Shown here: piece after piece, positions 29,731 to 59,092 of the stretch
Numbering within the stretch: position 1 is the stretch's first letter
Layout: the number at the start of each line of letters is the position of its first letter
Assembly: GCA_965261395.1 (NCBI GenBank)
Contig: OZ253462.1
Span: 2,880,001-2,944,000, forward strand
DNA from: Candidatus Latescibacterota bacterium
GTDB lineage: Bacteria > Latescibacterota > UBA2968 > UBA8231
Direction: 5' to 3'
Length of the DNA: 64,000 nucleotides
The notes under the pieces: generated by a model
What the model saw: only the letters and a program-made list of their open reading frames with translations
Told to the model about the DNA's origin: nothing
The model's database searches: none
Translations under genes and position numbers: made by a program

Positions 29731-29731
29731 G

Positions 29732-38768: not shown

Positions 38769-38791
38769 GCTACCTCGTTGGTGAGAGCTAA

Positions 38792-39543
38792 ACCCGTGCC
38801 CGACGAAGACCCGGCAGACCTGATCCGAGAGGTGGAGGAATGACACAAGTTACCGACGAGCTCCTCGACCAGATGGTCCAGGCCATTGTCGAAGAGGTTG
38901 ATCCCGAACAGGTGATCCTCTTCGGCTCTCGCGCTCGCGGCGACGCGCGGGAAGATTCGGATGTCGATCTGGTGGTGGTGGTGGCCGAGCCGTTTGGACA
39001 AGACCGGAGCCGGTACCAAGAGGCGGTCCGACTGTACAAGGTGCTCGCCGGATCGGGCGTTTCAAAGGACATCCTCGTTTATAGCCGCGACGACGTCGAG
39101 TACTGGCGCGACTCCCTCAACCACGTCTTGGCGCGGGCGTTGCGGGAGGGGAGGGTGCTCTATGAGCGACCTTAAATGTGTGCGCGTGCTGTTGGCCGCC
39201 GCAGACCGCGACATCGAGATACTGCAACTCATGCACGATTCCACCGGCGGCCCCGATGAGATTTTCGGCTTCCACGCGCAACAAGCCGCCGAGAAGTCGC
39301 TCAAGGCGTGGCTTGCTCTCCTTGGAGAGGTGTACCCGTTGACGCATGATCTCGATGCCCTCATCGAGAGGCTCTCCGGGAGAAATGCCGATGTAGGCAG
39401 GTATCGGGGGTTGACGGTCTACAGTGCATTCGCCGTTCAGTTTCGATACGAGGGAATGACCGAGGGGATCTCCATTGATCGCGAACACGCTCTGCATCTT
39501 GTGAGTGCCCTTCTGCAACAGGTCCGGCGGATGGCGGAGGTGG
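38792..39543 (+). repeat. repeat A copy 1 (752 bp: hsdM-like stub + MNT + HEPN)
   Basis: Near-identical to 46264-47015; 4 substitutions seen by eye. Confidence 0.95.
38840..39175 (+). CDS. minimal nucleotidyltransferase (MNT) antitoxin
   Basis: ILFGSRARGDAREDSDVDL. Confidence 0.92.
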   Translation: MTQVTDELLDQMVQAIVEEVDPEQVILFGSRARGDAREDSDVDLVVVVAEPFGQDRSRYQEAVRLYKVLAGSGVSKDILVYSRDDVEYWRDSLNHVLARALREGRVLYERP

Positions 39544-39551
39544 AGGAATGA
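39162..39551 (+). CDS. HEPN domain protein
   Basis: FHAQQAAEKSLKA, THDL, AVQFRY; start MSDLK overlaps the MNT 3' end. Confidence 0.92.
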   Translation: MSDLKCVRVLLAAADRDIEILQLMHDSTGGPDEIFGFHAQQAAEKSLKAWLALLGEVYPLTHDLDALIERLSGRNADVGRYRGLTVYSAFAVQFRYEGMTEGISIDREHALHLVSALLQQVRRMAEVEE

Positions 39552-39883
39552 CACAAGTTACCGACGCGCTCCTCGACCGGATGGTCCAAGCCATAGTCGC
39601 TGAGGTTGGTCCCGAGCAGGTGATCCTCTTCGGGTCTCGCGCTCGTGGCGATGCACGAGAAGATTCGGATGTCGATCTCATTGTGGTGGAGGCCGAGCCG
39701 TTTGGGGAGACTCGGAGCCGACGTTTAGAGGCCGCCCGCGTTTACGAGGCGGTGGCCGGTTTCGACGCTTTGACGGACATCTTGCTTTATAGCCGCGACG
39801 AGGTCGAGCACTGGCGCGACTCAGTCAACCATGTCCTTGCCCGTGCATTACGAGAGGGAACGGTGCTATATGATCGACCTTGA
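39548..39883 (+). CDS. MNT antitoxin, second paralog
   Basis: ILFGSRARGDAREDSDVDL. Confidence 0.92.
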   Translation: MTQVTDALLDRMVQAIVAEVGPEQVILFGSRARGDAREDSDVDLIVVEAEPFGETRSRRLEAARVYEAVAGFDALTDILLYSRDEVEHWRDSVNHVLARALREGTVLYDRP

Positions 39884-39923
39884 TGAAGCGCGTGCGCTCA
39901 TTCAAGCTAGCCCTTTTCCGTAG
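39870..39923 (+). pseudogene. 5' stub of a HEPN gene
   Basis: MIDLDEARALIQA, homologous to MSDLDKARTLLEA at 48735 and in the same overlap position. Confidence 0.75.
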
Positions 39924-40045
39924 ATTATTCCGCATAACTCAACAGCTTCTTAAGCCTCACCTAGCGCATGTGTGTGCCTCGATACGCTCGCTCGCTAGCT
40001 GCCACTCGGAGAGTGGGTGCGGCTCTTTCTTTGGAGGGATTCACC

Positions 40046-40648
40046 ATGCACAAAGTAACCATAGCCCTTGCCACTTTCGCCGTTTTCTTGGGCTGTGAAG
40101 TAGGTAGTCCTACTTCGCCTAGCGCAGCCAAGAGTACCAAGGCTGCGGCCGAACAATGTCCGATGCCGATTTTGGGCATAGTGGGAACATGGGCGGGGCA
40201 GGGTTCTACTATCTTGGAGAACATCAACACCGCCGACACGTTGTGGATAGAGTTTGCTCCCGATCCGAACCCAGCGGGCGAACCGGGCGTAACGTATTAC
40301 GACTACACGCTGCTTTCGTACTATTCCCCGTCTGATGGGGATGATCTAATACTTGCCGAACTTGCCGACATGCTAGGGCTTACCGACTTGGGCTTGCCCA
40401 GCCTTTTAGAGGAGCGACGCGGTAAAATGGGCGTGTACTATGCGGACGGTGGTAAGTGGGCGTTCAACCATACTGTAACCTATATCCGAAGTTGGAACCT
40501 AGAAGAGTATGAAGAGTGGGGGGGGCGGTCTGAGCCGAGTTGGGGCCATGAGATAAAGATGTTTGATGGGTGGCTTGTTTTACAGAGGACGTGGTATGAC
40601 ATATGGGACGAGGACTATGAGTATGAGTATGAGCGCGTTGACGAATGA
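40046..40648 (+). CDS. hypothetical lipoprotein
   Basis: GGAGG RBS, MHKVTIALATFAVFLG-C lipobox; acidic and Trp/Tyr-rich. Confidence 0.7.
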   Translation: MHKVTIALATFAVFLGCEVGSPTSPSAAKSTKAAAEQCPMPILGIVGTWAGQGSTILENINTADTLWIEFAPDPNPAGEPGVTYYDYTLLSYYSPSDGDDLILAELADMLGLTDLGLPSLLEERRGKMGVYYADGGKWAFNHTVTYIRSWNLEEYEEWGGRSEPSWGHEIKMFDGWLVLQRTWYDIWDEDYEYEYERVDE

Positions 40649-40761
40649 CTGACCGCTTGCCCATACACGTTGATTCGCGGCTAAGGAACTGCTCCAAAGG
40701 ATGTAGCGGCAGGCGAAGGTGCTCTCTCACGTAGAGACGAAACCGAGGTAATTTCAGTAAT

Positions 40762-43700
40762 ATGTCCTTGAGCACAACAAAGCTGGACAACCAAGAAAAA
40801 CTCAAGCGAGAGCTACATAACGCCCCAAAAGCGTCTAAGCTTGAACATCTCGCGGCGGCTCTGATTGGTCGTCTTCTCGATGTGCCGATTGCGGTTGCCA
40901 AGTCTGGCTTTCAACATGGCGCAGATGCTGGTCCGGCTGGACAGCAAGGGCGACGATTTCGGGTGGAATGCAAGAAGTATAGTGATAACAGTAGCTTGAG
41001 TGAACGAGAGCTATTGGGGGAGATCGACCAAGCACTAGCGCGGGATGAGGCCCTTGAAGCTTGGGTGCTGGTTGCAACTTGTAGCGTTTCAGAACAGCTC
41101 CGGCAATCGCTTAATCAGCATGGAGAACGGCTAGGCGTTCCTGTCCTGATTATCGATTGGATAGATCACGAAGTGGCACCGCTTGCAGCATTGTGTGCAT
41201 TCGCTCCTGATTTGGTCGAGAAAGAATTCTCAAAGGAAGCTGGCGCGGCGGCTTGCACTCTTCAACCCATATCAGAGCAGGCAATCGAAAGGTTACGACG
41301 CGACCTGCAATCTTGGTGCTTGGGGTTTGAAGCAATACGGACACGCTCTCACGATAAGCTCAATAAGATTTGGAACTTGCCGCAAGAATCGAAGGCTGCA
41401 ATCGGACAAGACGCGGCTGGGGGCGCTCAAAATAAGAAGGTCAAACGCAGCGCAGTGCATGAGGCACTGAATGCGTGGTGGCAAAGACCGGCTCAGGATG
41501 GTGCCCCGGCTGCTGTAGTCGGATTGGAAGGGAGTGGCAAGACATGGGCGACTTTCCACTGGTTGATCGACAGTAAGGACACGCAACCAATTGTTCTGAT
41601 AACTCCATCCTCTGCGGTAGCCGCCATTGGTAATGTCTCCGAAACCATCGTGAAGCAACTCCTAGCGGATAGCCTTCACGAGATGAGCGGGATACGGAAT
41701 CGGGAGCACTGGCTCCGTCGGCTCGATTATCTGCTTAAACGTCCGGTCTGTGAAGGACCAGTCCTGACCATATTCTTCGATGGCCTGAACCAAGAGCCTT
41801 CCGTTCAATGGCTACGACTCTTGCAAGTTTTGCAAGGTGAGACGTTTGCGGAACGAGTACGGGTAATTGTCAGCACTCGCAATCATCATTTTGAAGAAAA
41901 GTTGTCGGAGCTTCGTGGCCTCTCTGTGCTAGCCAAGCGGGTTGACGTAGATCTCTATAATACAGCACCGGGGAGCGAACTCGACCAAATGCTTGAGTTC
42001 GAGAATCTCACGCAGGCCGACTTGCATCCTGATGTGATTGAGTTGGCGCGTAACCCCCGCCTTTTCAAGCTAGTAGTACGTTTCCGAGAAAGGCTGGTCG
42101 AGGCGGGTCAAATAACGGTACATCGGCTGCTTTGGGAGTATGGACGTGACACTTTCGGAGAGCGGACCGGCGAGTCGTTCAGCGAAAACGAGTGGAGGGA
42201 CTGGCTGAAAGAAATTGCTCAGAAACGTCGGAACGGTATCAAAGAATACTCAGAAAGGTCGATCGGCAAGATGGTGAATCGCCCAGACCTCACTAAAAAC
42301 GAAGTGTATGCACGGTTCAGCGACATTATTGACGGTCGGTTCGCTACACGCGATCCATCAGGCGATCTACAACTCACTCCTGCGGTTATTGCACATGCCC
42401 TCGGCGTTGCGCTTCTGAATCATCTTGATCAAGTAACTTCTCCAAAATTCGACAATTTGAATGCCGAGTTGACGAAATGGCTTGATCCCATCGCGGGTCT
42501 TGATGAACAAACGGAAATCCTGCGTGCGGCGGTGTCAATTTTGGTAGAGCAGGGATGTGCGGCAAAAGCACCCGTCCCCGGAGTGCTCGTCACGGCATGG
42601 CTACAAAGCCAGAATATACCGGACGAGCATCGCCAAGAACTTGTCGATCTTGCTCCGCAACTTCCGAATGCTCTACTCGACGCGGTTGAGCATTCGGACA
42701 GTCACGCTCACGATTCCGCTAGATTTTGGGCCGTGAACGCGCTGAGTACAATCCCGCGAGACGATAGCACAGTCCTTGATATGATTGTCAAACGATCCTG
42801 CGGCTGGCTGAGCATTGTCTCTTGGGACGGTGATAGGCAGTCGGATAGGCTTAAACGCCTGATTGGTAGCGATACCTTGGGTCCGATTACGGTCGTCGGC
42901 GTAGAACTCGAACTAGTTGATCAGTCCTCTGGCTTTCTGAAAGATGTGGTCCCGTCAATTGTCGAAGGTTTTCCATTGGCTAATGCCCTGCCGATTTTCG
43001 AGACAGCGACCGTTGCGTTGGAGGTGGAAGATAGTATCTATCGCTGGGATGGCCTGACGTGGCTCTGCTTACTCAATGAAGTTGACCCCGACGAAACGGC
43101 GACGGCTTTACGTGCCTTGTCAGAAGAAATCAGTTGCCGCCAGCCGGAACAGGGTGTACATCCGGATCTTCCGAAGCGTATCGCTGCACTGCTGCTTCGG
43201 CTGACAGGTCAGGAGGGGGACGAGGACGCCGCTGTGTCTATGGATCCCGGCATTGACCGTCCACCCACTTATGAGGAAGACTACCTTCCTCAGCCCGGCC
43301 GAAGCTGGTTTCCGCTGGAGCGGCGACATGCACAGAGCGTCCTCGCCGACACGGAACTGTCTCTGCATTCCCGCATACAGCGGACCGCAGAACTATGGCT
43401 TGATCCGAATTTTGAACCGCCAGCGAGCTTTGTTGCAGAAGTTCGCGCCGCAGCGACCCACATTGATGTTGGGAAGCTGAACCGACACAGCATACTCACC
43501 CCTGAAGATCATGACTTTGAAAGACTGGAACCGGTGCTGGCTCGATGTGCGCCGGACCTGCTTGCGGATCTAATCCGCCGCAAGATGCGGAGTATGGCTA
43601 CCTGTCCGCCGGAGTCCCGGTACCGGAGTGCTATCCATGCGACCGGGTATCTGGTGCTAGCAGGCGAGGATGAGGCGGTGGCAGCGAGAGCGTTACGGCT

Positions 43701-45318
43701 CAGAAACTGCCTGAAAATCCTTGGCGGCCTTCGCACGGCTGCAAAAGCGGTGGGCTGCTTCGCTCGCCTTGTCCGCTACTTTTTCTCTCGTGCTCAGGGC
43801 ACACCCGGAATTTTCAGACAGCTTTTCAGCGGCGGCAAAGACGGAGACGATGATGCCTCTGCCGCCAATGATCTCCTATTGGTGGAGATACGAGATCTGG
43901 ATGCGCAGGCCCAATTCGACGAATTGATCCATGCGGACTTGCAGTCCATCTCGGACAACGCTGAGATCCTCGCTATGATCCTGCGTCCCCCGACATCGGC
44001 TGATGTCGATGTCCTGATCGCTCGCCATGCCGATGGCTCACTCAAACAGCAACGCGATCTGCTCACCTTATTGTCGATCCTCCCGGTTGAACTCACGGAC
44101 ACGGCTTGGTCATGGGTTGAAAGATGTGCGAAATGTCAAGACAATGATTCTCGCGGATTTGCATTCCGTATTCTAACCCATGCTGACCCAGTGCGGTTCG
44201 GTCAAATGCTTGAGACTGACGGTTGGTCTTGGAGTCAGGACGAGCATGACTGGGTCAACTATTACGGAATGGACGCTCTTATCAAGGCCACGCTGGCCCT
44301 TCCTTTCGATCAGTTAGCACCACGGCTTGCACCTTGGCGGCTATTGCAAGCTGCTCGGACGCGTGGTCCCGACCCTACCGAGGTACGACTGGCGGCTGAA
44401 CGCTTCGGTCAATTACTCGATGGGAGGCATCGCTCGAAAGCTATCTCCTACTGCGCGGAAGATTTCGTACCTGTTCTGCAACATACACCGGATATCGTCG
44501 AACAGTGGCTTGAGGGCTTTTGCGAGCCTACGGCTGATTTCCAGCGTCGTGTTCTTTTTGCTGAAAAGGCTTTTCTTGCACTCTGCGAGGCTCTCCTTGT
44601 ACACGACCCCGAGCGAGGCGTACAGTTGTGGAAAACCTTATGGAAAACCCTGAGCGTCACCATGGTACCGCGATACATCAGCACCGCAGACCTCTTACAC
44701 ATAATCTTTCGCGTTCCAGATTCACCGGCAGTAACGGTACTCCGAGACGAACTAGCTGGGCTAGAACATTGCCATACTGATCAGGCACTATTCAATCTGG
44801 CAATTGTTGCGTCCTGTAACGGTAAGGACGATTGGCTCGCCACTCTCATTAAGCAAGATCAAACATCGAAATTCGCTTGGCGACGGAAACGCGCCATAGT
44901 CCTCGCGGGCTTTACCGTGAACAATACGCTACCGGTTGAGGATGCTTGGCCTAGTGGAGAAATCAAAACAGGCTACGCCAATCTTGCTCAGAAAGCAGCT
45001 CGTTATAGGTGGGCCGAGGGATGTGCCCGCCACTGGTGGCGAGCCTACCTTGCGTCCTCTGATCCGACTAAGGCTTATGCCGCTTGGGTTTTGTTTTTGC
45101 GCTCGGCGGATCGTCGTTGTTGGGTATGGATGAACCAAGATATTGAAGCCGCACAAGAATCGGACGACTTCTTCAAGCTCAAGGTGATCCATGCTGGACT
45201 TAATCAAGGAAAGCTAGAGAATGCTTTGAAGAAGCGCGAGGACAAGCTCGACAAGAACTTTTTAGACCGTCGGATTTTTGCGGGTGTAGGTCCTTGGCCA
45301 AAATACGTACCGCGTTAG
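40762..45318 (+). CDS. PD-(D/E)xK nuclease + STAND/NACHT-like NTPase + long helical sensor (Avs/bacterial NLR-like defence protein)
   Basis: GFQHGADAG...FRVECKKY, Walker A GLEGSGKT, Walker B IFFDGLNQ, RVIVSTR, ARNPRLF; 1518 aa; lower GC than host genes. Confidence 0.8.
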   Translation: MSLSTTKLDNQEKLKRELHNAPKASKLEHLAAALIGRLLDVPIAVAKSGFQHGADAGPAGQQGRRFRVECKKYSDNSSLSERELLGEIDQALARDEALEAWVLVATCSVSEQLRQSLNQHGERLGVPVLIIDWIDHEVAPLAALCAFAPDLVEKEFSKEAGAAACTLQPISEQAIERLRRDLQSWCLGFEAIRTRSHDKLNKIWNLPQESKAAIGQDAAGGAQNKKVKRSAVHEALNAWWQRPAQDGAPAAVVGLEGSGKTWATFHWLIDSKDTQPIVLITPSSAVAAIGNVSETIVKQLLADSLHEMSGIRNREHWLRRLDYLLKRPVCEGPVLTIFFDGLNQEPSVQWLRLLQVLQGETFAERVRVIVSTRNHHFEEKLSELRGLSVLAKRVDVDLYNTAPGSELDQMLEFENLTQADLHPDVIELARNPRLFKLVVRFRERLVEAGQITVHRLLWEYGRDTFGERTGESFSENEWRDWLKEIAQKRRNGIKEYSERSIGKMVNRPDLTKNEVYARFSDIIDGRFATRDPSGDLQLTPAVIAHALGVALLNHLDQVTSPKFDNLNAELTKWLDPIAGLDEQTEILRAAVSILVEQGCAAKAPVPGVLVTAWLQSQNIPDEHRQELVDLAPQLPNALLDAVEHSDSHAHDSARFWAVNALSTIPRDDSTVLDMIVKRSCGWLSIVSWDGDRQSDRLKRLIGSDTLGPITVVGVELELVDQSSGFLKDVVPSIVEGFPLANALPIFETATVALEVEDSIYRWDGLTWLCLLNEVDPDETATALRALSEEISCRQPEQGVHPDLPKRIAALLLRLTGQEGDEDAAVSMDPGIDRPPTYEEDYLPQPGRSWFPLERRHAQSVLADTELSLHSRIQRTAELWLDPNFEPPASFVAEVRAAATHIDVGKLNRHSILTPEDHDFERLEPVLARCAPDLLADLIRRKMRSMATCPPESRYRSAIHATGYLVLAGEDEAVAARALRLRNCLKILGGLRTAAKAVGCFARLVRYFFSRAQGTPGIFRQLFSGGKDGDDDASAANDLLLVEIRDLDAQAQFDELIHADLQSISDNAEILAMILRPPTSADVDVLIARHADGSLKQQRDLLTLLSILPVELTDTAWSWVERCAKCQDNDSRGFAFRILTHADPVRFGQMLETDGWSWSQDEHDWVNYYGMDALIKATLALPFDQLAPRLAPWRLLQAARTRGPDPTEVRLAAERFGQLLDGRHRSKAISYCAEDFVPVLQHTPDIVEQWLEGFCEPTADFQRRVLFAEKAFLALCEALLVHDPERGVQLWKTLWKTLSVTMVPRYISTADLLHIIFRVPDSPAVTVLRDELAGLEHCHTDQALFNLAIVASCNGKDDWLATLIKQDQTSKFAWRRKRAIVLAGFTVNNTLPVEDAWPSGEIKTGYANLAQKAARYRWAEGCARHWWRAYLASSDPTKAYAAWVLFLRSADRRCWVWMNQDIEAAQESDDFFKLKVIHAGLNQGKLENALKKREDKLDKNFLDRRIFAGVGPWPKYVPR
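43703..43825. mobile_element. 123-bp MITE related to the IS5-family element at 52366, inserted in frame
   Basis: Ends gaaactgcctgaaaa and ttttcagacagcttt (12/15 and 13/15 to the IS inverted repeat); flanked by TCA at 43700-43702 and 43826-43828. Confidence 0.85.
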
Positions 45319-45505
45319 AGGGATTAAAGCGTTCTTGCCTTGCTACAAGACCACGAGGACCGCTAAGTTCAACTGCCAAACCCTAGCGCGAAAAGAGCAG
45401 TGTGCTCGTCCGTACTGTCTATTACCTGAGTGTGGACATGCCTAGGAGATAGCACTAGATTGAGATGGCTCGCAAACCAAGCGATAACGGCCTCGATCTC
45501 GCCCC

Positions 45506-45623
45506 AAATTTGGACTAGGAACGCCGGAGGTATAAGATGACTAATGTTGACAAAAACGTCGAAATTAACTTGCCCCTCGAAAACCTCATTGACACCCTCT
45601 GCAAACTGCCTCCTGACACTCTG
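45506..45623 (+). repeat. repeat B copy 1 (118 bp: RBS + 5' end of the antitoxin)
   Basis: Identical to 54010-54127. Confidence 0.95.
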
Positions 45624-45845
45624 AGGGAAGTCAAACAAAGGATTGAAAGGCAACTCCAAGAACCTGATCAGTCTCAGGAGCCGTTGGATGACCTCCATGA
45701 GGACGACTTGTGGGGCTTGGGAGGGAATCGAGAAAGTGCCGACGGTGCGGATTCTCCGGCCTCGATAGAGGAGGTGCTCAGAATCACATCTAAGTTCAAA
45801 GGATCCATGGCAAAGATCGTGAGCGAAGAACGAGATGAACGATAA
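45537..45845 (+). CDS. putative antitoxin of the downstream PIN toxin
   Basis: Small acidic ORF ending SMAKIVSEERDER, translationally coupled (TAATG) to the PIN gene. Confidence 0.7.
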   Translation: MTNVDKNVEINLPLENLIDTLCKLPPDTLREVKQRIERQLQEPDQSQEPLDDLHEDDLWGLGGNRESADGADSPASIEEVLRITSKFKGSMAKIVSEERDER

Positions 45846-46315
45846 TGGCTTTCTGTTTTTTTGACACGAGTGCTCTGATTAAATACTACCACGACGAGTT
45901 GGGAAGGCAGAAAGTCGTCGATCTCGTTGATAATCCAAACAATCGCATTTTTATTTCGCGGCTTGGACTGATAGAATGGCATTCGGCTTTCTTCCGTCTC
46001 ATGCGCATGAATACGTTTACCCAAGACGAGTTTCAGACGATACGGACTCGATTTCTTGCAGATATTCGGCAGCGGAAATTTCTTATTCAGCCTTTTGAAC
46101 TCACACACCAAAACCAAGCTGTTCGCCTGCTCGCCCGTTATTCTTTCACCGAAAGGTTACGGACCTTAGACGCTCTTCAGCTTGCCGTTGCTCTTCATGT
46201 AAACAGCCATACACCTCTCGATTATTTTGTTTGTGCTGATAGCCCCTTCTGTCAGATAGCCGCACCCGTGCCCGACGAAGACCCGGCAGACCTGATCCGA
46301 GAGGTGGAGGAATGA
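45845..46315 (+). CDS. vapC: PIN-domain (VapC-like) toxin with its C-terminus replaced by repeat A
   Basis: FFDTSALIKYY, LRTLDALQLA, FVCAD. Confidence 0.88.
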   Translation: MAFCFFDTSALIKYYHDELGRQKVVDLVDNPNNRIFISRLGLIEWHSAFFRLMRMNTFTQDEFQTIRTRFLADIRQRKFLIQPFELTHQNQAVRLLARYSFTERLRTLDALQLAVALHVNSHTPLDYFVCADSPFCQIAAPVPDEDPADLIREVEE

Positions 46316-47015
46316 CACAAGTTACCGACGAGCTCCTCGACCAGATGGTCCAGGCCATTGTCGAAGAGGTTGATCCCGAACAGGTGATCCTCTTCGGCTC
46401 TCGCGCTCGCGGCGACGCGCGGGAAGATTCGGATGTCGATCTGGTGGTGGTGGAGGCCGAGCCGTTTGGACAAGACCGGAGCCGGCACCAAGAGGCGGTC
46501 CGACTGTACAAGGTGCTCGCCGGATCGGGCGTTTCAAAGGACATCCTCGTTTATAGCCGCGACGACGTCGAGTACTGGCGCGACTCCCTCAACCACGTCT
46601 TGGCGCGGGCGTTGCGGGAGGGGAGGGTGCTCTATGAGCGACCTTAAATGTGTGCGCGTGCTGTTGGCCGCCGCAGACCGCGACATCGAGATACTGCAAC
46701 TCATGCACGATTCCACCGGCGGCCCCGATGAGATTTTCGGCTTCCACGCGCAACAAGCCGCCGAGAAGTCGCTCAAGGCGTGGCTTGCTCTCCTTGGAGA
46801 GGTGTACCCGTTGACGCATGATCTCGATGCCCTCATCGAGAGGCTCTCCGGGAGAAATGCCGATGTAGGCAGGTATCGGGGGTTGGCGGTCTACAGTGCA
46901 TTCGCCGTTCAGTTTCGATACGAGGGAATGACCGAGGGAATCTCCATTGATCGCGAACACGCTCTGCATCTTGTGAGTGCCCTTCTGCAACAGGTCCGGC
47001 GGATGGCGGAGGTGG
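46264..47015 (+). repeat. repeat A copy 2
   Basis: Near-identical to 38792-39543 (offset 7472). Confidence 0.95.
46312..46647 (+). CDS. MNT antitoxin (copy of 38840-39175)
   Basis: GSRARGD...DSDVDL. Confidence 0.92.
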   Translation: MTQVTDELLDQMVQAIVEEVDPEQVILFGSRARGDAREDSDVDLVVVEAEPFGQDRSRHQEAVRLYKVLAGSGVSKDILVYSRDDVEYWRDSLNHVLARALREGRVLYERP

Positions 47016-47026
47016 CGGAGGCGTGA
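46634..47026 (+). CDS. HEPN domain protein (copy of 39162-39551)
   Basis: FHAQQAAEKSLKA, THDL. Confidence 0.92.
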   Translation: MSDLKCVRVLLAAADRDIEILQLMHDSTGGPDEIFGFHAQQAAEKSLKAWLALLGEVYPLTHDLDALIERLSGRNADVGRYRGLAVYSAFAVQFRYEGMTEGISIDREHALHLVSALLQQVRRMAEVAEA

Positions 47027-47124
47027 TGGAGTGGCCTGTGGCCCAGCTTGGAGACGTTGTCCAAGCGTTCATCAGCGGCGGTGCTCCGACCACCAAGGTT
47101 GGCGCGCCAGCCTTTAAGCCGTAA
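47026..47124 (+). pseudogene. 5' stub of a type I R-M hsdS gene
   Basis: MEWPVAQLGDVVQAFISGGAPTTK matches the HsdS N-terminal W..xLGDV...SGGTP pattern; coupled to the HEPN stop. Confidence 0.65.
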
Positions 47125-47284
47125 GCCCCAAGCGTTCACGCTTGAGCTTTACATCAAATTCTGTGATAAGCCTAAAGCATTTCAATACCGAAGCGGAAGA
47201 AATAGGCGTGGGTGATGGGCAGGTTGATGCCAGCGGTGCGCGTTTTGACCTAGGTAAGAACTGGATCCACTGAGGTAGATCGCC

Positions 47285-47851
47285 ATGCTCAAAGAAGGTC
47301 AACTCGTCAAAGCCATTCCCCTAGAAGGAAGACAGGTGCTATGCCGCTATCCGCGCTGGCAGGACATACCCTCGTACGTCGAAATGTGCCAGATTCTGCA
47401 CCGCGAGCGGGTGCGGGCCTATCACGCTGATACGGATTTCGCCCTGGGCTGCCAACGCTTGGCCCAGATCATGGTCGAAGTCGAGACAGGTCAGGCCTCC
47501 CACCTTTTGCTGGAGGTGGATGGACGCATTATCGGCGAGGGCCGCATGGCCCCCCACAACCGGGTCATGGGGATTTTGGGAATCAAAATCATCGGCGAGT
47601 ACCAGGGTCGGCACCTGGGCACGGCGCTGATGGGAGTTTTGGAGGAAGAGGCGCGCAAAATGGAGCTGCAGCAGATTTACCTGACTGTATTCGCCAATAA
47701 CACCCCTGCCCGCCGTTTGTACGAAAAGGTCGGTTACCGGCAAGTGGGGCGCATTGCCGAATGGTTCAGTGAAGAGGACGAAGACGGTCCTATTGCACTG
47801 GTGGACAGAATAGATATGATGAAACACATAGAGCCGGAGACTCGAGAATGA
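47285..47851 (+). CDS. GNAT family N-acetyltransferase
   Basis: YQGRHLGTALM, VFANNTPARRLYEKVGY. Confidence 0.9.
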   Translation: MLKEGQLVKAIPLEGRQVLCRYPRWQDIPSYVEMCQILHRERVRAYHADTDFALGCQRLAQIMVEVETGQASHLLLEVDGRIIGEGRMAPHNRVMGILGIKIIGEYQGRHLGTALMGVLEEEARKMELQQIYLTVFANNTPARRLYEKVGYRQVGRIAEWFSEEDEDGPIALVDRIDMMKHIEPETRE

Positions 47852-47920
47852 AGACACCTGCGATCATTTTCACCGACGACGGCTGGCGTCTTAGATCTGT
47901 AAATTCATAGAGGAGACCAA

Positions 47921-48331
47921 ATGTCAGAGCATCCCAAGCCAACCTGTAAAGTGGTTCGTGGCGGAGAAACCTACGAAGGCAAACAGGCACTCACCTATAT
48001 TTCGGGGATCGCCGCCGAGACCACCGGCTCGCAGAGAATTTGCATGCACCTGCTGAACATGCCTCCTAAAGGACGAGCCAAGGCATACCTGCACGAAAAC
48101 CACGAGACAGCTATTTATGTCATCAGCGGCCAAGCTGGAATGTGGTATGGCGAGCGGCTGGAGGAGCATGAATCCATCAACAGCGGCGACTTTATTTACA
48201 TCCCCGCCGGCGTCCCTCACCTTCCCTACAATCCCAGCGAGACTGAAACCTGTACTGCTGTGATCGCCCGGACGGACCCCAACGAACAAGAGAGCGTTAA
48301 ACTCTTACCCGAACTGGACGAGATACACTAA
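47921..48331 (+). CDS. cupin domain protein (contains repeat C copy 1 at 48142-48329)
   Basis: LHENHETAIY, GDFIYIPAGVPHLP, ARTDPNEQES. Confidence 0.9.
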   Translation: MSEHPKPTCKVVRGGETYEGKQALTYISGIAAETTGSQRICMHLLNMPPKGRAKAYLHENHETAIYVISGQAGMWYGERLEEHESINSGDFIYIPAGVPHLPYNPSETETCTAVIARTDPNEQESVKLLPELDEIH

Positions 48332-48412
48332 AACATCTACTCAACCTTTTTCTCTACTCGCCGGACGCTTCCAATGACACCCAATGAGCCAAAAGCCCCC
48401 ACCGCCAGAGGA

Positions 48413-48748
48413 ATGGCACCCGTCACCGACGCGCTTCTCGACCAGATGGTTCAGGCCATCGTCGCCGAGGTCGATCCCGAGCAGGTGATCCTCTTCGGCT
48501 CTCGCGCCCGTGGCGACGCGCGGGAAGATTCGGATGTCGATCTGGTGGTGGTGGAGGCCGAGCCGTTTGGGAAGACTCGGAGTCGACGTTTAGAGGCCGT
48601 GCGCCTGTGGAAATCTCTATCGGGTTTTATCGTCCCGAAAGACATCCTCGTCTATAGCCGCGACGAAGTCGATTACTGGCGAGACTCCGGCAGCCATGTT
48701 CTAGCGCGTGCATTGCGGGAAGGGCGGGTGCTCTATGAGCGACCTTGA
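48413..48748 (+). CDS. MNT antitoxin, third sequence variant
   Basis: ILFGSRARGDAREDSDVDL. Confidence 0.9.
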   Translation: MAPVTDALLDQMVQAIVAEVDPEQVILFGSRARGDAREDSDVDLVVVEAEPFGKTRSRRLEAVRLWKSLSGFIVPKDILVYSRDEVDYWRDSGSHVLARALREGRVLYERP

Positions 48749-49125
48749 TAAGGCCCGTACCCTGCTAGAGGCGGCTGAGCGTGACCTCCGCGCCCTTCGA
48801 GGCATGAGCGACCCAATGGTCTTCGCTGACGAGATCGTCGGGTTCCACGCTCAACAGGCCGCTGAGAAATTACTCAAGGCTTGCCTTGCTAGGGGAGCCG
48901 TTCCCGTTCACTCACGATATAGATTACTTGCTACGGCTTGTAGAAAAACGCGGGCTCGGAGTGGAGCGATTTGAAGAGCTGATCGAGTACAACCCGTATG
49001 CTGTGCAATTTCGCTACGAATCCTACGACTCGGACGCCGAGCCAATCGACCGGGAAGAAGCCGTCCAGCGTTTGGAAGCGTTACGTCAGCAGGTCCGACG
49101 GCTGGCAGAGGTGGAGGGGGAGTGA
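48735..49125 (+). pseudogene. HEPN domain gene, frameshifted near 48885
   Basis: MSDLDK...FHAQQAAEKLLKA continues in another frame as LGEPFPFTHDI...AVQFRY; 391 bp in total. Confidence 0.85.
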
Positions 49126-49170
49126 TAGACCGGCTGGCAGACGTAGCCCAAGAGTTCATCAGTGGTAGCG
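49122..49170 (+). pseudogene. degenerate hsdS 5' stub
   Basis: GTG-IDRLADVAQEFISG, similar to LGDVVQAFISGG at 47026 and in the same position after HEPN. Confidence 0.5.
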
Positions 49171-52100
49171 CTTCGATCCTCGAAATTCCCCCTCTTTCAT
49201 TTTTAATTAAACAGAAATTTGCAGACTGAAATGCGCTTCCTTCCAAACGGACTGAACATTCCAGACGAACTGCTTGAAGCACGCGACCAAGGGAACGTCG
49301 TGTTCCTGTGCGGGGCAGGCGTTTCCTATCCCGCCGGAATGCCAAATTTCTTGGAATTGGCAAAGTATGTGGTCGAAGAACTGGGGGCACCACAAGACGC
49401 GCCCTCGCGTAAGATGCTGTCGATGTGGGACAACGAGGATATACCAGAAGACGCACGTCCTTCGCTCGATCAGATATTCAACCTCCTTCAACAGAAAGAA
49501 TACGCGCCGGGCGAAATTATTGACTACCTAATTGCGAAGCGGCTGAGAACTAAGCCTAGGGCTTGCGTCTCGACACACGAGACGATCTTACGCCTGTCTA
49601 AGGGTGCTGACGGCAAGCCTCAGATTGTCACGACGAACTTCGATCTTCTCTTCGAGCGAGCCGCTAACCAAAAATTGAAAACCTATGTTCCGCCAACGCT
49701 GCCCGATTTGGCCAATGGACAGCCGTTAAATGGACTTGTCTATCTCCACGGTCGGATTAATTCTAGGATCAAACGAGGTGAAGGTCGACAGGGATTAGTC
49801 GTAAGTAGTTCGGATTTCGGGCGGGCCTACTTAGCAGAGGGCTGGGCGACGCGCTTCATTCGCTACCTCCTCGATCAGTACACCGTTATTCTGCTTGGAT
49901 ATTCCGCAAACGATCCACCCGTCAGATACTTGCTTCAGGGTCTGCACTCCCAGCGACGTGGGAGTCGGGCGAAGCTCTTCGCGTTCGACCGTGGGACTGA
50001 AGAAGAAATCCAGCCACGTTGGCGAGATAGCGGAGTTCGGGTGCTCGCTTATCCTGCGACAGACGATTCCCACTCTGCCTTATGGGACACCCTCTCAGCG
50101 TGGGCAGATCGCGCAGACGACCCCTTGGCGTGGCGGCAACGAATCGTTGATCTAGCTAGAAAAGGACCGAGAAATCTTGAGCCATACGAACGCGGTCAGG
50201 TCGCATCGCTCGTCAGAACCGAAGTCGGTACAAAGCTGTTCGCGGATGCCGATCCGCCTCCGCCCGGAGAATGGTTGTGCGTGTTCGACCGTAATTTTCG
50301 GTATGGGGAGGTTGGTATTCAATCAGATGATTCACAGCCCGCCTTTGATCCGTTTATTGAATACAGCTTGGACGATGATCCTCCTCGTCCATCAGAGAAT
50401 CGGCTTCAGGCTGATCCGCTGGGTGACGATCTTTTATCGCTGAAACCTACGGATCGCCGCATCAATGATGATACAAGACTGGCAAAGAATGGCCGCCATT
50501 GGACCGAGCCTTTATCGTTCAGATTGCTTCACCTTGCTCGATGGATCGCAAAGATAGCACACGAGCCGGTCGTGCCGTGGTGGTCAGCGCAGTACTCGAG
50601 CCTTCATCCCAAGTTGCTTGACGAGATTGAACGGCGTGTCGAACGCGCTGTTGACGAGCTACCAAGTTTGGCCCGATTGACTTGGAGATTGTTGATCGAA
50701 AAATTCCACACGGCCCCCGATGATCCCTATGGACTTAGAGTGTATTGGGACAAAATGCGCCAACGGATTGAGACCGAGGGTTGGACTAACAGTTTCCTCC
50801 GAGAATTCGAGCGAAACGTAATGCCCTATATAGAGACTGAGGCACCTTCACGCCTTGATGTCTCTCGCCCCCCAGATAGAGATTGGTCGCAGCTTCGTCT
50901 GAACTACATTGCGAGATTCAAGGTCGCGTTCCCGACCCCCATCGGACAACGACCCGAAATCCCCAATGATGTTCTACCGAAGATTTATCAGATTGTCCGC
51001 AGGCACTTGGAATTGGCGACGGGACTGCTGGCGGATATCGGAACTAGCTACTGGAAAACCTCGACTTTCTACCCGGAAGACAGGACCGGAGAGAACTATA
51101 TCAGCGGCGAGAGCCCTTGCGCTTATCTCTTTTGGTTCCGCGTCTTGTTCGACCAGATGGTTAAAGCACATCCAGAGTTGGTTAGGGCCGACATGGCTCT
51201 CTGGCCAAAGGAAGATCCCTTTTTCTTTAACAAACTCCACCTATACGCCGGGACCTTCGATGTCCTTTTCTCTGGAGATGCAGTTGGGGATGGACTCCTA
51301 TCGCTTTCTGATAAGGGATTCTGGGAAAAGGATTACCGCCGGGAGTTGCTTCATCTCTTAAAGCGTCGCTGGCATGAGTTGCCTTCGGACAAGCGCGAAC
51401 TGGTGGAACGGCGCTTGATCGATGGCCGAGCAAGATACGACAGTGAATCGGAAGAGGACTTTGAGCAAAGGTGTTCAACCGAGTCTGCTATAGTCTTGGA
51501 TTGGCTTATAAACCAAGGCTGCGAGCTTGGCAGGGAAGCACGTTCAGTCCTGCCTAGTCTCCGCAGTGCTGATCCACGTTGGCGTCCAGAATGGGCCGAA
51601 ATTGCTGATGAAAGTCGTGAGGGTAGAGTAGTATCTATTGAAACAGACTCCGATCCATCTCTCATTATTGACGCTCCGATTAGTCAGATTATTCCATTGG
51701 CTAGACAGCATACAGGACGTGCGTTCCCTGAACCTACTGTTTATAGCCCCTTTGATGGGTTAGTCGAACAACATCCTGTCAGAGCCGTTGCCGCCCTGAC
51801 GCACGCAGCGCGACGAGGCGACTATCCGGCGGAATTTTGGTGCTCTGCACTTCAAGAGTGGCCGGATGAAGCGCGACATCGCCTTAGCTGGCTGTTCGGT
51901 GCGAGGCTGGCACGGCTCCCCTCGAAAACTGTAGTCGAATTGCGAGACGATGTGTTTGGCTGGTTGCGGAAGCATTTGCCGAAGCTGGCCGCACAGGATC
52001 AACCTCGCGCCCTGAGCATATTCGATGTACTGCTCGAAAAGCTATTCACAGGTGAGGAAGAGGTGGAGCAGAGCGGAGAGCATCAAGATCGATCGCGTAG

Positions 52101-52365
52101 GACACACAACTACGTAGTAAGCGCACCCGTCGACAAGGCGACCGTATTGCTTCTCGAGCTTTTGAATTCACAAGGCCCTAGAGTAGGATCGAGCATTCCG
52201 CCAGAAATCAAATCGAGGCTCGAACGCCTATTCGACGCTCCCGGCGAAGGCGCTGATCACGCGGTTTACGTCGTTGCTAGTCAACTCAGGTGGCTCAATG
52301 ATATTGACCCGGAATGGGTTCGTGCTACAATTGTGCCTTGGTTCGACTTGGAGCATCCGGTGTCA

Positions 52366-53295
52366 GAAGCCGTCTGAAAACTCTAATTTTCATTTGATTC
52401 GTTTAAGTAGCAAGTGGATCATGGCAATCTGGATCAAGGCTTCACTATGGCGGGTCAAGACCTCATAATCTCTCGCATGTCGGCGAAAATTCATCAACCA
52501 CGCCAAGGTGCGCTCGACGACCCACCGGCGTTTAACTAGGGTAAATCCGGAGCCTTGTTTGGCGACGACTTCCAAGTCTATTTTGTGCGTCTTTTTTTGG
52601 TTGGCCACCCACGTTCGGATGGCCTCGCCTTGGTAGCCGCCATCAACCCACAGCTTGCGTAACCGAGCCACTCCGGCGGCCTTCAAGCGGGTCAACACCT
52701 GCTTCAAACCCTCTCGATCATCGACATCGGCGGCGGTGACCACCACCTGTCGAAGCAAACCCGACGTGTCCACCAACAAATGCCGTTTGCGGCCTTTGAT
52801 CTTTTTACCGGCGTCATACCCGGTTGTTTTACCATGCGTTGCGGTCTTAATCGTCTGACTATCGACGCAGCCAGCCGACGGCATCGCCGCCCGGCCGCTC
52901 TGGCGGCGTTCCCGCTTGGTCAACCGATCCAACACCGGCGGCCAGACCCCTTGCAGGCTCCAGCGACGAAAGTAATCATACCCCGTTTTCCACGGCCCAA
53001 AACAAGCAGGCAACAAAGCCCAAGGACACCCCGTCTTGTTCAAATATAAAAGGCCGTTGACGATTTGGCGTCGATCCCGCGGCGGCCGACCCGGACCGTG
53101 AAGCCGCCAGCGCGGCGCGGGCAGCAACGGTTCGATCCGCTGCCATTGTCCATCGGTTAGATCGGTGGCATATTGCCTACGCGGCGTACTCATTATACAA
53201 GCCTTTCTGTTCAGATTTTGTGGTGAAACCTGAATATGGCTCGATGAGTACGCCCTTTCAAATTCGGCTACATCAGAGGGTTTTCAGACGGCTTC
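52366..53295 (-). mobile_element. IS5-family insertion sequence (IS1031-like), 930 bp
   Basis: Perfect inverted repeats gaagccgtctgaaaa and ttttcagacggcttc; TCA target duplication at 52363-52365 and 53296-53298. Confidence 0.95.
52390..53193 (-). CDS. IS5-family DDE transposase
   Basis: YATDLTDGQW, VDSQT, GYDAGKKIKGRKRH, DGGY, RWVVERT..W...RR. Confidence 0.96.
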   Translation of the reverse strand: MSTPRRQYATDLTDGQWQRIEPLLPAPRWRLHGPGRPPRDRRQIVNGLLYLNKTGCPWALLPACFGPWKTGYDYFRRWSLQGVWPPVLDRLTKRERRQSGRAAMPSAGCVDSQTIKTATHGKTTGYDAGKKIKGRKRHLLVDTSGLLRQVVVTAADVDDREGLKQVLTRLKAAGVARLRKLWVDGGYQGEAIRTWVANQKKTHKIDLEVVAKQGSGFTLVKRRWVVERTLAWLMNFRRHARDYEVLTRHSEALIQIAMIHLLLKRIK

Positions 53296-54009
53296 TCAGA
53301 ATCCGCATGGAACGGCTTCTCGGACGATTGGCTACCAAAACCGGAACTATTCTCGCTGATCAAATCCGACTTCTTGAACGCGATTGTTCATGCAGCGAGG
53401 TGGAACTGGGACGATCATTCTCTTCAAAAACTGCATGAATTTCTAGTTCTCGGCTGCTTCTGGCACCAAGACTATGGTCCCTATATCACCTTTGAGGAGA
53501 CCCGCCAAGTCCTACAGAATACCAACGACAGTGGCCGCGCTCATAGCCTCTGGTTTTTCACCCGAATCATCGATAAAAACCACGCTTGGCGACGCTTTGG
53601 CAAGCCCTTCTTGGAAAGGGCTTGGCCGAGGGAGACTCGTTTCCAGACGGAGGAGACATCGCAGCATCTTGTAGCGTTAGCAAAAGGGGCTGGCGACTTC
53701 TTCCCCGAGGTGGTCCAAACTATTCTTCCCTATCTGGTTCCAATGTCCCGGAACGTCGGCTTCGTGTCTTCCCTAGCTCGGCAGAGTGATGAAGAGACGG
53801 GTGGATTGCAAACGCGGTTTCCAGATGCTACGCTGATGCTCATCAATAAGATAATTCCAGACGATCCTGACCAAGTGCCATACGACTTGGATTCGTTGAT
53901 TGAGATGATTGCAGAAGCCAAGCCAGGCCTTCGCCAAGATAGCCGATGGCGGCGGTTGAAGGCCCTCACACTCCGCGAGTAAATCGCACCAAATTCTATG
54001 ACACGACCG

Positions 54010-54317
54010 AAATTTGGACTAGGAACGCCGGAGGTATAAGATGACTAATGTTGACAAAAACGTCGAAATTAACTTGCCCCTCGAAAACCTCATTGACACC
54101 CTCTGCAAACTGCCTCCTGACACTCTGGTGGTATGGCGAGCGGCTGGAGGAGCATGAAGACATCAACAGCGGCGACTTTATTTATATCCCCGCCGGCATC
54201 CCTCACCTTCCCTACAATCCCAGCGAGACGGAAACCTGCACTGCTGTGATCGCCCGGACGGACCCCAACGAACAAGAGAGCGTTAAACTCTTACCCGAAC
54301 TAGACGGGATACACTGC
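54010..54317 (+). repeat. repeat B copy 2 (54010-54127) fused directly to repeat C copy 2 (54128-54317): chimeric antitoxin-5'/cupin-3' remnant
   Basis: Matches 45506-45623, then 48142-48329. Confidence 0.93.
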
Positions 54318-54348
54318 GGAGCCATCATTTCGAGATAGGGGTTTCCCA

Positions 54349-54528
54349 ATGATTATTCGCTGTATCCTCCCACTTTTGTTTGTATTCTCTTGTCTGCACT
54401 CCGCAATCGCTCAGGAACGCTACAAATTTGCTTTTGGCACGCATGGTGGGCCGGGAAATCCATTCTGGAATGTGGTGATTAAGGGCATGGAAGATGCGGC
54501 CAAACGCTATGATGTCGATGTGCAGTAA
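54349..54528 (+). pseudogene. 5' fragment of a sugar ABC transporter substrate-binding protein
   Basis: Signal peptide, then THGGPGNPFWNVVIKGMEDAAKRYDVDVQ*; only 59 aa. Confidence 0.75.
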
Positions 54529-54725
54529 TAGAATCCGCTCGTGCAGCGCATTCTCTGTACGACGGCCGCCGCAGCCGCAGTCCGAGTTCGCCGCCTGACC
54601 TGCCTTCTCGACCCGCCTCCGGGGCCGGCTCTACCGGGCGGGCCTTTCCGTGCCTCGTCGACTCGAGGCGAAGCTACGCTGGAATCCAGTCAACCAGGGG
54701 TGTGTTTCGCTCCCAGCGCCGCCGA

Positions 54726-57455: not shown

Positions 57456-58677
57456 AGTATTTCCTCCACCACAGTTTCAGCACACCGCTCGCGAAGTCGT
57501 AGATCCCCTCTTCGACTTCGACGATGTAGAAATCGTTCTCTAGGTCGAGCAATATTTGATTGAATAATTGTTTGCGCTCATGCGCCGGAAGTTCGATGCC
57601 GCTGTCCACCAACAAGCGATCCGTTTCTTGCAACAGGGATGCACGCTTCAGCCCGGATTCGCTCACACTGATTTGCCCCAACAAGGCGTAGGCGATCGAG
57701 CGTTTGGGATCCGTATAGTATTGCTGGATTCGCGAATAGTAGTGTTGCAACCGTGTGCGCGCACCTGAACTGACAATCAACGCGTCGAAGATGGCATCGA
57801 CATCCGCCGCGAAGATTTTACGTTGCTCCTTTTTCCATAACCTGTAGAGATCCTGGGTTGCCATCTGCATGAAGAGCGGGATCGGACGACCCAGTCGAAC
57901 GCTCATCTGCCGCGGAACCGCCTCATCGTATGGGACGCCTCGCCCGCTAAGCATTTCGTTCACGAAAACCTCAATGTCACCGTCAGTAAGTTGAGGCAGG
58001 GGCACGTCTTCAAGGTCGTTGATGAGATCCACCTGTCCGAGCGCGTCCAGGGTTCCTGCGAGATTGACGGAGCCGCCAACCAACCAGCGGATCGCATCTT
58101 TTGCGGGTGCTGGATTTAATCGCTGGGTGCGAAACCAGGCGAGAAACTCACGCAGCAACACGGCATCCTTCCGGGACAAGTTGAGCAGCATGTCAGGCAA
58201 CTCGTCGACGATGAATAGAATTGGAATATTCATGTTGCGAGCCTGTTGGAGAAACGTGTCGCCATGCTGCCGCCAGTTTTCGCGCCAGTTGGGATCGCTT
58301 TCGCGTAGCGCGAGTTTGAATTCACCGACACCGATCTCCGCGACCAGCCCCAGCGCGCCAGTTACAAGCTTCCAGCCAGCGGCAAGTTGGTCCCGCACTA
58401 AAGCCGGATGCGCATCATGGAAAGCGTCGAGCAGCACCTGGAAGAAATCGGCTGGATGGGTCAAGTCCTGGACGTTGATTGAAACCACCGAGAAATTGTT
58501 CCGGGGATGGTCGCGCAAGTGATCCATGACGCTGGTCTTGCCTGTTCGTCGAGCAGCCGTGAGCACCAGATGCCTCGTGCGCAATGTTTCCCAAAGCTCC
58601 GTGAGAAACTCCTCGCGAAATCGCAAGTCCACTGGGTCGACGGGAGCGCCGGTGTAGAATTCGGGGGTGCTTTTCAT
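57448..58677 (-). CDS. AAA+/STAND-like ATPase overlapping the downstream TPR-ATPase
   Basis: Walker A AARRTGKT, Walker B LFIVDELP, VGGSV, C-terminal YDFASGVLKLWWRKYY. Confidence 0.85.
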   Translation of the reverse strand: MKSTPEFYTGAPVDPVDLRFREEFLTELWETLRTRHLVLTAARRTGKTSVMDHLRDHPRNNFSVVSINVQDLTHPADFFQVLLDAFHDAHPALVRDQLAAGWKLVTGALGLVAEIGVGEFKLALRESDPNWRENWRQHGDTFLQQARNMNIPILFIVDELPDMLLNLSRKDAVLLREFLAWFRTQRLNPAPAKDAIRWLVGGSVNLAGTLDALGQVDLINDLEDVPLPQLTDGDIEVFVNEMLSGRGVPYDEAVPRQMSVRLGRPIPLFMQMATQDLYRLWKKEQRKIFAADVDAIFDALIVSSGARTRLQHYYSRIQQYYTDPKRSIAYALLGQISVSESGLKRASLLQETDRLLVDSGIELPAHERKQLFNQILLDLENDFYIVEVEEGIYDFASGVLKLWWRKYYA

Positions 58678-58787
58678 TTTAACATCACTTCGGTTGTAAA
58701 ACAGAATCGTTTTGTAAATAAAATACGACGGTATTGATGTATGTCAAATTCGTTTTAGGGATGTGCAGAGGCACGTCCCGTGCCCTG

Positions 58788-58862
58788 CCGTCCCTCGACG
58801 CGCCGGCCACGCCGGAGGCGATCCTGCGCGCGGCGGACGCGATGCGGGTCTGCGGCTCCTGA
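58788..58862 (+). pseudogene. 3' stub resembling the xanthine dehydrogenase molybdopterin subunit (xdhB)
   Basis: PSLDAPATPEAILRAADAMR, typical XdhB C-terminal LDAPATPE motif. Confidence 0.55.
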
Positions 58863-58884
58863 CCCTGATGCAGTCCGGACGGTG

Positions 58885-59056
58885 GGAGGAGCATGAAGAC
58901 ATCAACAGCGGCGACTTTGTTTACATCCCCGCCGGCATCCCTCACCTTCCCTACAATCCCAGCGAGACGGAAACCTGCACTGCTGTGATCGCTCGGACGG
59001 ACCCCAACGAACAAGAGAGCGTTAAACTCTTACCCGAACTAGACGGGATACACTGC
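58885..59056 (+). repeat. repeat C copy 3 (cupin 3' end)
   Basis: Near-identical to 54146-54317. Confidence 0.93.
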
Positions 59057-59065
59057 TAGACAAAG

Positions 59066-59092
59066 GCGGGAAGGGAAGGTGCTCTATGAGCG
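59066..59092 (+). repeat. 27-bp relic of the MNT/HEPN junction
   Basis: gcgggaagggaaggtgctctatgagcg versus gcgggaagggcgggtgctctatgagcg at ~48715. Confidence 0.8.

Follow-up and report, generated by a model that had tools for sequence, protein, structure and literature searches.

Among the described systems closest in layout are bNACHT25 and bNACHT32 of E. coli, which belong to NACHT clade 6 (Kibby et al.) and combine a restriction endonuclease, a NACHT module and a helical C-terminus; their protection is reported to require the PD-(D/E)xK nuclease, and sensing proceeds via the host protein DnaJ (PMC12169576; 10.1101/2022.07.19.500537). The accession of bNACHT25 is WP_001702659.1. Many Avs families with a nuclease-STAND layout likewise defend against phage by means of their nuclease, as stated in 10.64898/2026.01.04.697583. 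The 2026 catalogue of Lee et al. comprises 589 STAND clades, of which 198 are associated with defence, along with 684 sensor clusters; 30 clusters were cloned, and the seeds of the catalogue included STANDs with Mrr effectors (PMC13581612; 10.64898/2026.01.04.697583). A protein of the same layout is encoded in a stretch of 64,000 nucleotides (hereafter the window; positions 2,880,001 to 2,944,000 of contig OZ253462.1, assembly GCA_965261395.1) from a Candidatus Latescibacterota bacterium. This 1518-aa protein, composed of a nuclease, a NACHT module and a helical solenoid, is probably a stand-alone NLR-like (bNACHT/Avs-type) immune receptor that acts as a single-gene abortive-infection DNase.

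In both the window protein and bNACHT25/32, one chain combines a PD-(D/E)xK domain at the N-terminus, a NACHT module in the centre and a helical C-terminus. The C-terminus of bNACHT25/32 is described as an NCH1 domain; that of the window protein is an ARM/HEAT-like solenoid of ~890 aa without a match in Pfam (both likeness and difference are compared by description only). In Avs4 (EcAvs4, 8dgf), the nuclease and nucleotide-binding domains are collinear with those of the window protein (Z 12.4; model residues 14-437 to 8dgf_B 5-390), and Avs4 and Avs3 (8dgf and 8dgc) resemble it also in size (~1530 aa) and in their effector-STAND-helical sensor layout. By contrast, neither the window protein nor any of 31 relatives matches an Avs profile of PADLOC, although the Avs4 model matches a 1735-aa neighbour of the family gene in locus L008; moreover, the ATPase of the window protein ranks NACHT proteins first, and its sensor model resembles HEAT/ARM proteins. 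Animal NLRs (NOD2, NLRP3, NLRP9, and NLRC4) share the NACHT fold over ~280-300 residues (Z 12.3-14.6), and the window protein has both the tiny residue after the Walker B aspartate (D340-G341) and an S/T-T-R sensor-1; it differs from them in that its effector is a nuclease instead of a CARD or PYD, its sensor is a solenoid instead of an LRR domain, and the acidic pair is replaced by N343/Q344.

The original prediction had presented the protein as a candidate for a new Avs/NLR-like type. This claim was too strong, because proteins with a restriction endonuclease-NACHT-helical layout are already known from the bNACHT25/32 reports cited above, and the nuclease-NACHT-solenoid family may already be included in the 2026 STAND catalogue, among Avs7-24 or the 684 sensor clusters. 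Relatives, looked up by six accessions and six organism names, have 0 occurrences in six supplements of PMC13581612, its large tables excepted. The kind of system is known; the window protein is an ordinary example of it, and its family is large and unnamed.

Gene and domain architecture

The gene comprises the following features:

40762..45318, + strand: whole gene, encoding the 1518-aa nuclease-NACHT-solenoid protein (open reading frame list and translation; stop codon at 45316-45318)
40762..41241, + strand: PD-(D/E)xK (Mrr/MspJI-like) endonuclease domain, aa 1-160 (VIA-align to MspJI and conserved residues)
E28; D55 at 40924-40926; E69-x-K71 at 40966-40974, + strand: putative catalytic residues (alignment)
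41320..42651, + strand: NACHT-type STAND module (nucleotide-binding domain, helical domain, winged helix, second helical domain), aa 187-630
41521-41544, + strand: Walker A; 41779-41793, + strand: Walker B (DGLNQ)
Within the NACHT module, + strand: sensor-1 S-T-R373 and P432-R433 (motif conservation, 44 sequences)
42652..45315, + strand: all-helical ARM/HEAT-like alpha-solenoid, presumed sensor, aa 631-1518 (AlphaFold2 model)
43703..43831, + strand: imperfect palindrome of 129 nt, in frame (43 codons), aa ~981-1024 (DNA comparison with orthologues)

The reading frame is exactly as originally described: it lies on the + strand, starts with ATG, and remains open throughout, with 0 internal stops. 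Each of the motifs that had been named is present in the protein, namely D55 and E69-C70-K71 (D...ECK) within GADAGPAGQQGRRFRVECKKY, the P-loop G254LEGSGKT261, which fits the Walker A pattern GxxxxGK[ST], and the Walker B motif D340GLNQ344. The portrayal of the last ~1000 aa as a Trp-rich, helical region without TPR or WD repeats also agrees with the data; beyond aa ~400, the predicted structure is nearly all helix, tryptophan accounts for 41 of the 1518 residues (2.7%) and is found mostly in aa 1101-1500, and a Pfam scan of the protein did not match any TPR or WD family. The gene is present in one copy in its genome. A word-index search retrieved 546 proteins at E<=1e-3, and among the 120 relatives listed, which are 53-87% identical to the query, the name given by the source, where there is one, is always 'hypothetical protein'; full-length homologues lie within this range of identity. 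Together with 1261 matching cluster representatives at the same threshold, these relatives indicate that the open reading frame is not due to chance.

The nuclease and NACHT modules

Structural models were predicted with AlphaFold2 from family alignments in two overlapping pieces, covering residues 1-980 (pLDDT 85.9, pTM 0.73) and residues 640-1518 (pLDDT 89.7, pTM 0.89). In the first piece, the N-terminal domain shows the core restriction-endonuclease fold, which aligns (VIA-align, model residues 3-158) with the catalytic domain of MspJI (4f0p_B) over 139 aa with Z 11.1 and a root-mean-square deviation (rmsd) of 3.0. The residues E28, Q51, D55, and E69 are invariant in the family alignment (44/44).

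The module that follows (residues 187-630) aligns best with NOD2 (5irn; Z 14.6, 296 aa, rmsd 5.5), followed by NLRP9 (Z 13.9) and the NACHT module of NLRP3 (Z 13.2), whereas proteins of the Apaf-1/CED-4 and ORC/Cdc6 types score 2-3 Z units below the NACHT rows. A Foldseek search with the N-terminal model is headed by Avs4 (8dgf, E 1.8e-7) and Avs3 (8dgc, E 4.3e-7), which are followed by SAMD9, NLRP2/3/9, NOD2, NLRC4, Apaf-1, and AVAST5; there were 72 matches at E<=1e-3, and all 40 of the 40 rows listed are of the STAND/NLR type. The switch residues K260, D340, and R433 are present in 44/44 sequences of the family, P432 in 43/44, and R373 in 42/44. The Walker B aspartate D340 is followed by G341, and a tiny residue in this position is typical of NACHT modules. 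The effector-STAND-sensor layout of the original prediction is therefore borne out by fold and not by motifs alone, given the similarity to MspJI (Z 11.1) and to NOD2, NLRP9, and NLRP3 (Z 13-14.6) and the top rank of Avs4 and Avs3 in Foldseek.

The resemblance to MspJI raises the question of whether the protein recognizes nucleic acids. It is quite improbable that it is an NTP-regulated restriction-type enzyme, in which the solenoid would bind modified or foreign DNA and the Mrr/MspJI-like domain would cut it in a type IV-like manner. Such a function would fit the observation that, among single domains, the nuclease is matched best by the catalytic domain of the modification-dependent MspJI and that the gene often lies beside restriction-modification genes; also the authors of PMC13581612 state that some STANDs may sense non-proteins. 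However, the ATPase is a NACHT switch and not a translocase, a Pfam search of the protein and 31 relatives did not detect any DNA-binding domain family, and the known nuclease-STAND proteins described in the literature consulted sense proteins.

The sensor and its palindromic insertion

The C-terminal model consists of ~50 helices in a continuous array, interrupted by one small beta element (aa ~685-719). Its Foldseek matches are karyopherins (Kap123), CAND1, designed armadillo proteins, beta-catenin, and importins (E 2e-4 to 5e-3), and the best Z score in VIA (8.2) is rated generic for repeat proteins. A search of the named clusters with the Atlas language model reached 0.82 at best (DUF7824/7825), which is unconvincing. 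Avs3 and Avs4 were considered as relatives of the sensor but are absent from the 50 best Foldseek or VIA rows of the C-terminal model; their folds may still agree. As modelled, the sensor is ARM/HEAT-like, with only generic structural matches and no specific relative found in these searches, and its characterization as an unfamiliar region in the original prediction was apt.

The solenoid is interrupted by the 129-nt palindrome, which is not present in the orthologous DNA of three other loci (L001, L004, and L009). The insertion folds as a single long hairpin, with a z-score of merely -1.7 for a stretch of 181 nt. The encoded segment coincides with the one place where confidence in the sensor model is low (aa 991-1026), and the family is least conserved around it, with values of 0.21-0.26 for aa 951-1050. 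At the protein level, an insertion at this site occurs in only 4 of the 23 aligned relatives (P0002, P0003, P0027, and P0030), two of which have a longer version; P0002 and P0027, which are 87% and 69% identical to the window protein, both carry it. P0002 and P0027 each stem from a contig of 28098 nt, and the two could be paralogues encoded side by side in a single contig. The palindrome resembles palindromic elements known to insert in frame into coding regions. It does not behave as a multicopy miniature inverted-repeat transposable element; besides its own copy, the genome holds one partial match of 46 nt but no second full copy.

Because of this insertion, the possibility has to be considered that the window copy is a disabled relic, in which the additional 129 nt would block ligand binding or autoinhibition and which would persist as neutral, decaying cargo, while the family as such functions as proposed. 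The absence of the insertion from the closest orthologous DNA and the low confidence of the model at aa 991-1026 are consistent with this scenario, as are the presence of a stop-broken family copy in a related genome (G052) and the disruption of the nearby Dsr1 gene by an insertion sequence (IS). Nevertheless, the scenario is unlikely: the insertion adds exactly 43 codons and leaves the 1518-aa frame open, it is located in the least conserved part of the protein, and its retention in relatives with 87% and 69% identity suggests that it has been tolerated over time.

Family, conservation and distribution

The family is barely visible to profile databases. In Pfam, the window protein is matched by AAA_22 alone (16 bits, below threshold), and searches against NCBIfam and the sequences of the PDB did not match anything. 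The Pfam NACHT family (PF05729) does not match the window protein itself but is found in 4 of 31 relatives at E<0.01, in one of them above the gathering score (29.8 vs 26.7). Mrr_cat is detected weakly in one of the 31 relatives (17.4 bits vs a cut-off of 21) and not in the window protein. The C-terminal regions of the window protein and the 31 relatives do not match any Pfam family except for one weak HEAT_2 match in a single relative. When the profile of the 44-sequence family alignment was compared with PDB sequences, there were weak matches to alphaRep/HEAT designs (profile positions 959-1138, E 0.05). In PADLOC, the 31 relatives produced one weak N-terminal match to the candidate system PDC-S73 and nothing else. 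An Atlas cluster that scores 0.99 has NACHT annotated on 13% of its members. The nuclease-NACHT-solenoid family is unnamed in Pfam, NCBIfam, and PADLOC.

An exhaustive search of representatives of 50%-identity clusters, using residues 1-1200 as query, matched 1261 representatives at E<=1e-3; the number drops to 990 at 1e-10 and to 535 at 1e-30. The full-length representatives listed have identities down to ~26% and are mostly 1540-1580 aa long; the window protein falls into a length class of ~1470 aa (plus the insertion), as opposed to the long class of ~1550 aa. Among the 150 representatives listed, every member that includes the N-terminus has kept the nuclease, and nuclease, switch and sensor therefore evolve together. 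With only 25% identity, a relative of 1526 aa from the same genus still aligns at both ends (aa 8-692 and the C-terminal cap, aa 1209-1459), and the architecture is therefore old.

The 68 loci examined, which stem from species-representative genomes, belong to Latescibacterota, Nitrospinota, Dadabacteria, Thermodesulfobacteriota, Verrucomicrobiota, Acidobacteriota, Planctomycetota, and many Pseudomonadota. Cultivable carriers occur in Bradyrhizobium, Pseudomonas, Xanthomonas, Paraburkholderia, Nitrosomonas, Azospirillum, and Sphingobium. Relatives include WP_149201754.1 from an Azospirillum oryzae plasmid and WP_157606786.1 from Sedimenticola. Copies from different phyla can be highly identical (Latescibacterota-like vs gammaproteobacterial, up to ~60%), which points to horizontal transfer. 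At closer range, the distribution is patchy: 11 of 61 related genomes have a match at E<=1e-20, but a full-length orthologue is encoded by only seven of the 61 (including the genome of the window) and by two of the 30 other genomes of the same genus. The remaining matching genomes comprise three with distant relatives only and one with a stop-broken copy. In the latter (G052:C5:1579839-1584463), the family gene is degraded and fragmented, with TAA and TGA stop codons, which shows that genomes lose the family as well as acquire it. Matches were also obtained in 11 plasmid records, in one of them at full length.

Genomic neighbourhood and cargo hotspot

The open reading frames around the 68 loci were clustered together with those of the window (69 sources). 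There is no conserved partner gene, and the most widespread flanking cluster occurs in only 8 of the 69 sources; the gene travels alone. A two-gene system with the upstream 226-aa or the downstream 109-aa open reading frame was rejected, as neither clusters with neighbours in other loci, and the 109-aa gene accompanies MNT/HEPN cassettes in genomes without the NACHT gene.

Of 100 immediate neighbours, 22 match PADLOC models at E<=1e-5; they are distributed over 18 of 57 loci, several of which are from related genomes. The matches include type I, IIG, and III restriction-modification systems, a GajB-like helicase, ZacA, Avs4, LmuB, SduA, SoFic, and PDC candidates. A Pfam search of 137 neighbours identified HipA, Fic, AlbA_2, ArdC, IS transposases, and AlpA but also ordinary metabolic genes. 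In two loci, the family gene adjoins another giant STAND: in L008 (2676-7880) a protein of 1735 aa that matches the Avs4 model, and in L036 (2976-7832) a NACHT protein of 1619 aa.

In the window, the gene is part of a larger variable region:

38769..61127, no strand: cargo island of variable content, flanked by glnD (36156-38768) and the conserved genes for proteins of 581 aa and 349 aa (61128-63858)

In two syntenic chromosomes of Latescibacterota (L004 and L009), the gene is located between the same flanks. The interval from flank to flank measures ~22 kb in the window, as opposed to 1.5-10.3 kb in five genomes of the same genus that lack the gene, where the flanks enclose a shuffled cargo of MNT/HEPN cassettes, cupin and GNAT genes, a TPR-STAND with its AAA partner, and (in one genome) an intact Dsr1. 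The island of the window likewise contains MNT/HEPN cassettes, PIN and GNAT genes, an IS-split Dsr1, and a TPR-STAND. Since the same flanks hold different cargo in each genome, the nuclease-NACHT gene is interchangeable cargo of a hotspot. A DUF2330 gene had been considered as the right-hand anchor of this hotspot, but the query was not matched in the five genomes at E<=1e-50; the genes for the 581-aa and 349-aa proteins serve instead.

The segment with the nuclease-NACHT gene is bracketed by a direct repeat of 756 nt (38792-39547 and 46264-47019; 99.3% identity), each copy of which constitutes an MNT/HEPN cassette of the toxin-antitoxin type. Through this repeat, the segment could be lost or duplicated. 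Two more diverged MNT copies are located at 39548-39883 and 48374-48748.

The genomic context also bears on the question of whether the protein has an immune function at all. Non-defence STAND clades are interspersed among the defence clades, according to 10.64898/2026.01.04.697583, and a conserved signalling or regulatory protein with a role in housekeeping or stress would account for the unusually high conservation along the whole length of the protein and for its fixed architecture. Such a role is hard to reconcile with a nuclease effector whose catalytic residues are invariant, a patchy occurrence within the genus, the absence of a conserved operon partner, and residence in a variable hotspot and on plasmids, which make a non-immune STAND most improbable.

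Proposed function

The interpretation as an immune receptor is based on features computed here (the three folds, the conservation of the nuclease and the P-loop, the mobility as a single gene, the address in a defence island, and the patchy distribution). It follows from the folds, the invariant catalytic and switch residues, the lone travel, and the defence neighbours, and is strengthened by the scattered occurrence, the hotspot address, the plasmid copies, and the role of proteins with the same layout in phage defence. By analogy with Avs3/4 and bNACHT25, we infer autoinhibition, ligand-triggered oligomerization, DNA as the substrate, and cell death as the outcome, and with them the role of a pattern-recognition DNase that had originally been proposed.

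At rest, the protein would be kept as an inactive monomer by its C-terminal solenoid together with the NACHT module. Upon infection, a specific ligand would bind to the solenoid and release the inactive state; candidates are a phage protein that is conserved and a host factor that infection has altered. With ATP bound, the NACHT modules would then oligomerize and gather the N-terminal PD-(D/E)xK domains, which in their clustered form would represent an active, non-specific DNase that destroys the DNA of both phage and host (abortive infection).

Several observations weigh against this interpretation. Experiments on any member of the family were not found in the literature searched. A search of the window protein against PADLOC-DB 2.0.0, which includes models for Avs, yielded 0 families at E<=1, and none of the 31 relatives matched an Avs or NLR model at E<=0.01; a full-length match of the protein to the Avs1-5 models is thus lacking. 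Position 71 of the nuclease is a lysine in 38/44 sequences of the family but an arginine in 6/44. The window copy may be impaired by its palindromic insertion of 43 codons, or it may tolerate it. Conservation of the sensor (0.42-0.45 in the 44-sequence alignment) is nearly as high as that of the ATPase (0.51), and an arms-race signature is therefore missing. Effector swapping was not observed among the 150 representatives listed, and phage records did not contain a matching copy. PADLOC models also match 5 of the 31 other genes in the window, which is an unfair background for the figure of 22/100; these genes are not a clean control, because they include a type I restriction-modification system and an OLD/AriA-like ATPase.

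A further point concerns the switch itself. NACHT and NLR proteins usually carry an acidic pair ('DE') 2-3 positions past the Walker B aspartate (DGxDE). Acidic residues at these positions are not a feature of the family alignment, where the first is N343 (43/44) and position 344 is Q in 33/44 and E in 10/44. With N343/Q344 in place of the acidic pair, ATP hydrolysis may be weak, which suggests, as far as can be judged from these residues, a NACHT switch that binds ATP yet hydrolyses it poorly.

A more far-reaching and rather doubtful proposition is that the protein represents a distinct Avs-type receptor, whose trigger lies outside those assigned so far; the trigger might be some component of the phage or else a host factor under guard. 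In this case, a non-TPR solenoid of the ARM/HEAT type, conserved across phyla, would read the trigger, the NACHT module without the acidic pair would be an ATP-binding-only switch, and nuclease, switch, and sensor would evolve as one fixed unit, unlike most Avs.

Other defence genes in the window

The cargo island includes a Dsr1-like SIR2 gene (49219-53982) that is split by a transposase of the IS4/5 family (52390-53193, - strand) into an N-terminal part of 1052 aa (49219-52377) and a C-terminal part of 202 aa (53374-53982); in another genome of the same genus, Dsr1 is apparently uninterrupted (L073, 5584-9408). At 54726-58677 (- strand), a gene for a 909-aa AAA/winged-helix/TPR STAND overlaps by a few bases with that of a 409-aa AAA_22 protein. 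This pair, for which PADLOC does not have a model for either protein, recurs in the hotspot of two genomes of the same genus (L073 and L075).

A second defence island of the window is formed by a type I restriction-modification operon at 25551-31855 (- strand), which encodes HsdM, an unknown protein of 383 aa, HsdS, and HsdR and has a low GC content (0.52-0.57). At 10385-13745 (+ strand), a 581-aa AAA ATPase resembling OLD/AriA/GajA/NsnB is followed by a 470-aa protein without a PADLOC match; the two may constitute a two-gene defence system.

Implications

Because the family is unnamed in Pfam, NCBIfam, and PADLOC, it is missed by genome annotation and by censuses of defence systems. The discovery of its trigger would leave the concept of bacterial pattern recognition unchanged. 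Once found, the trigger would add one more receptor-ligand pair to the map of bacterial pattern recognition, and it would test whether an ARM/HEAT sensor and a NACHT module with a variant Walker B behave like the TPR-based Avs proteins.

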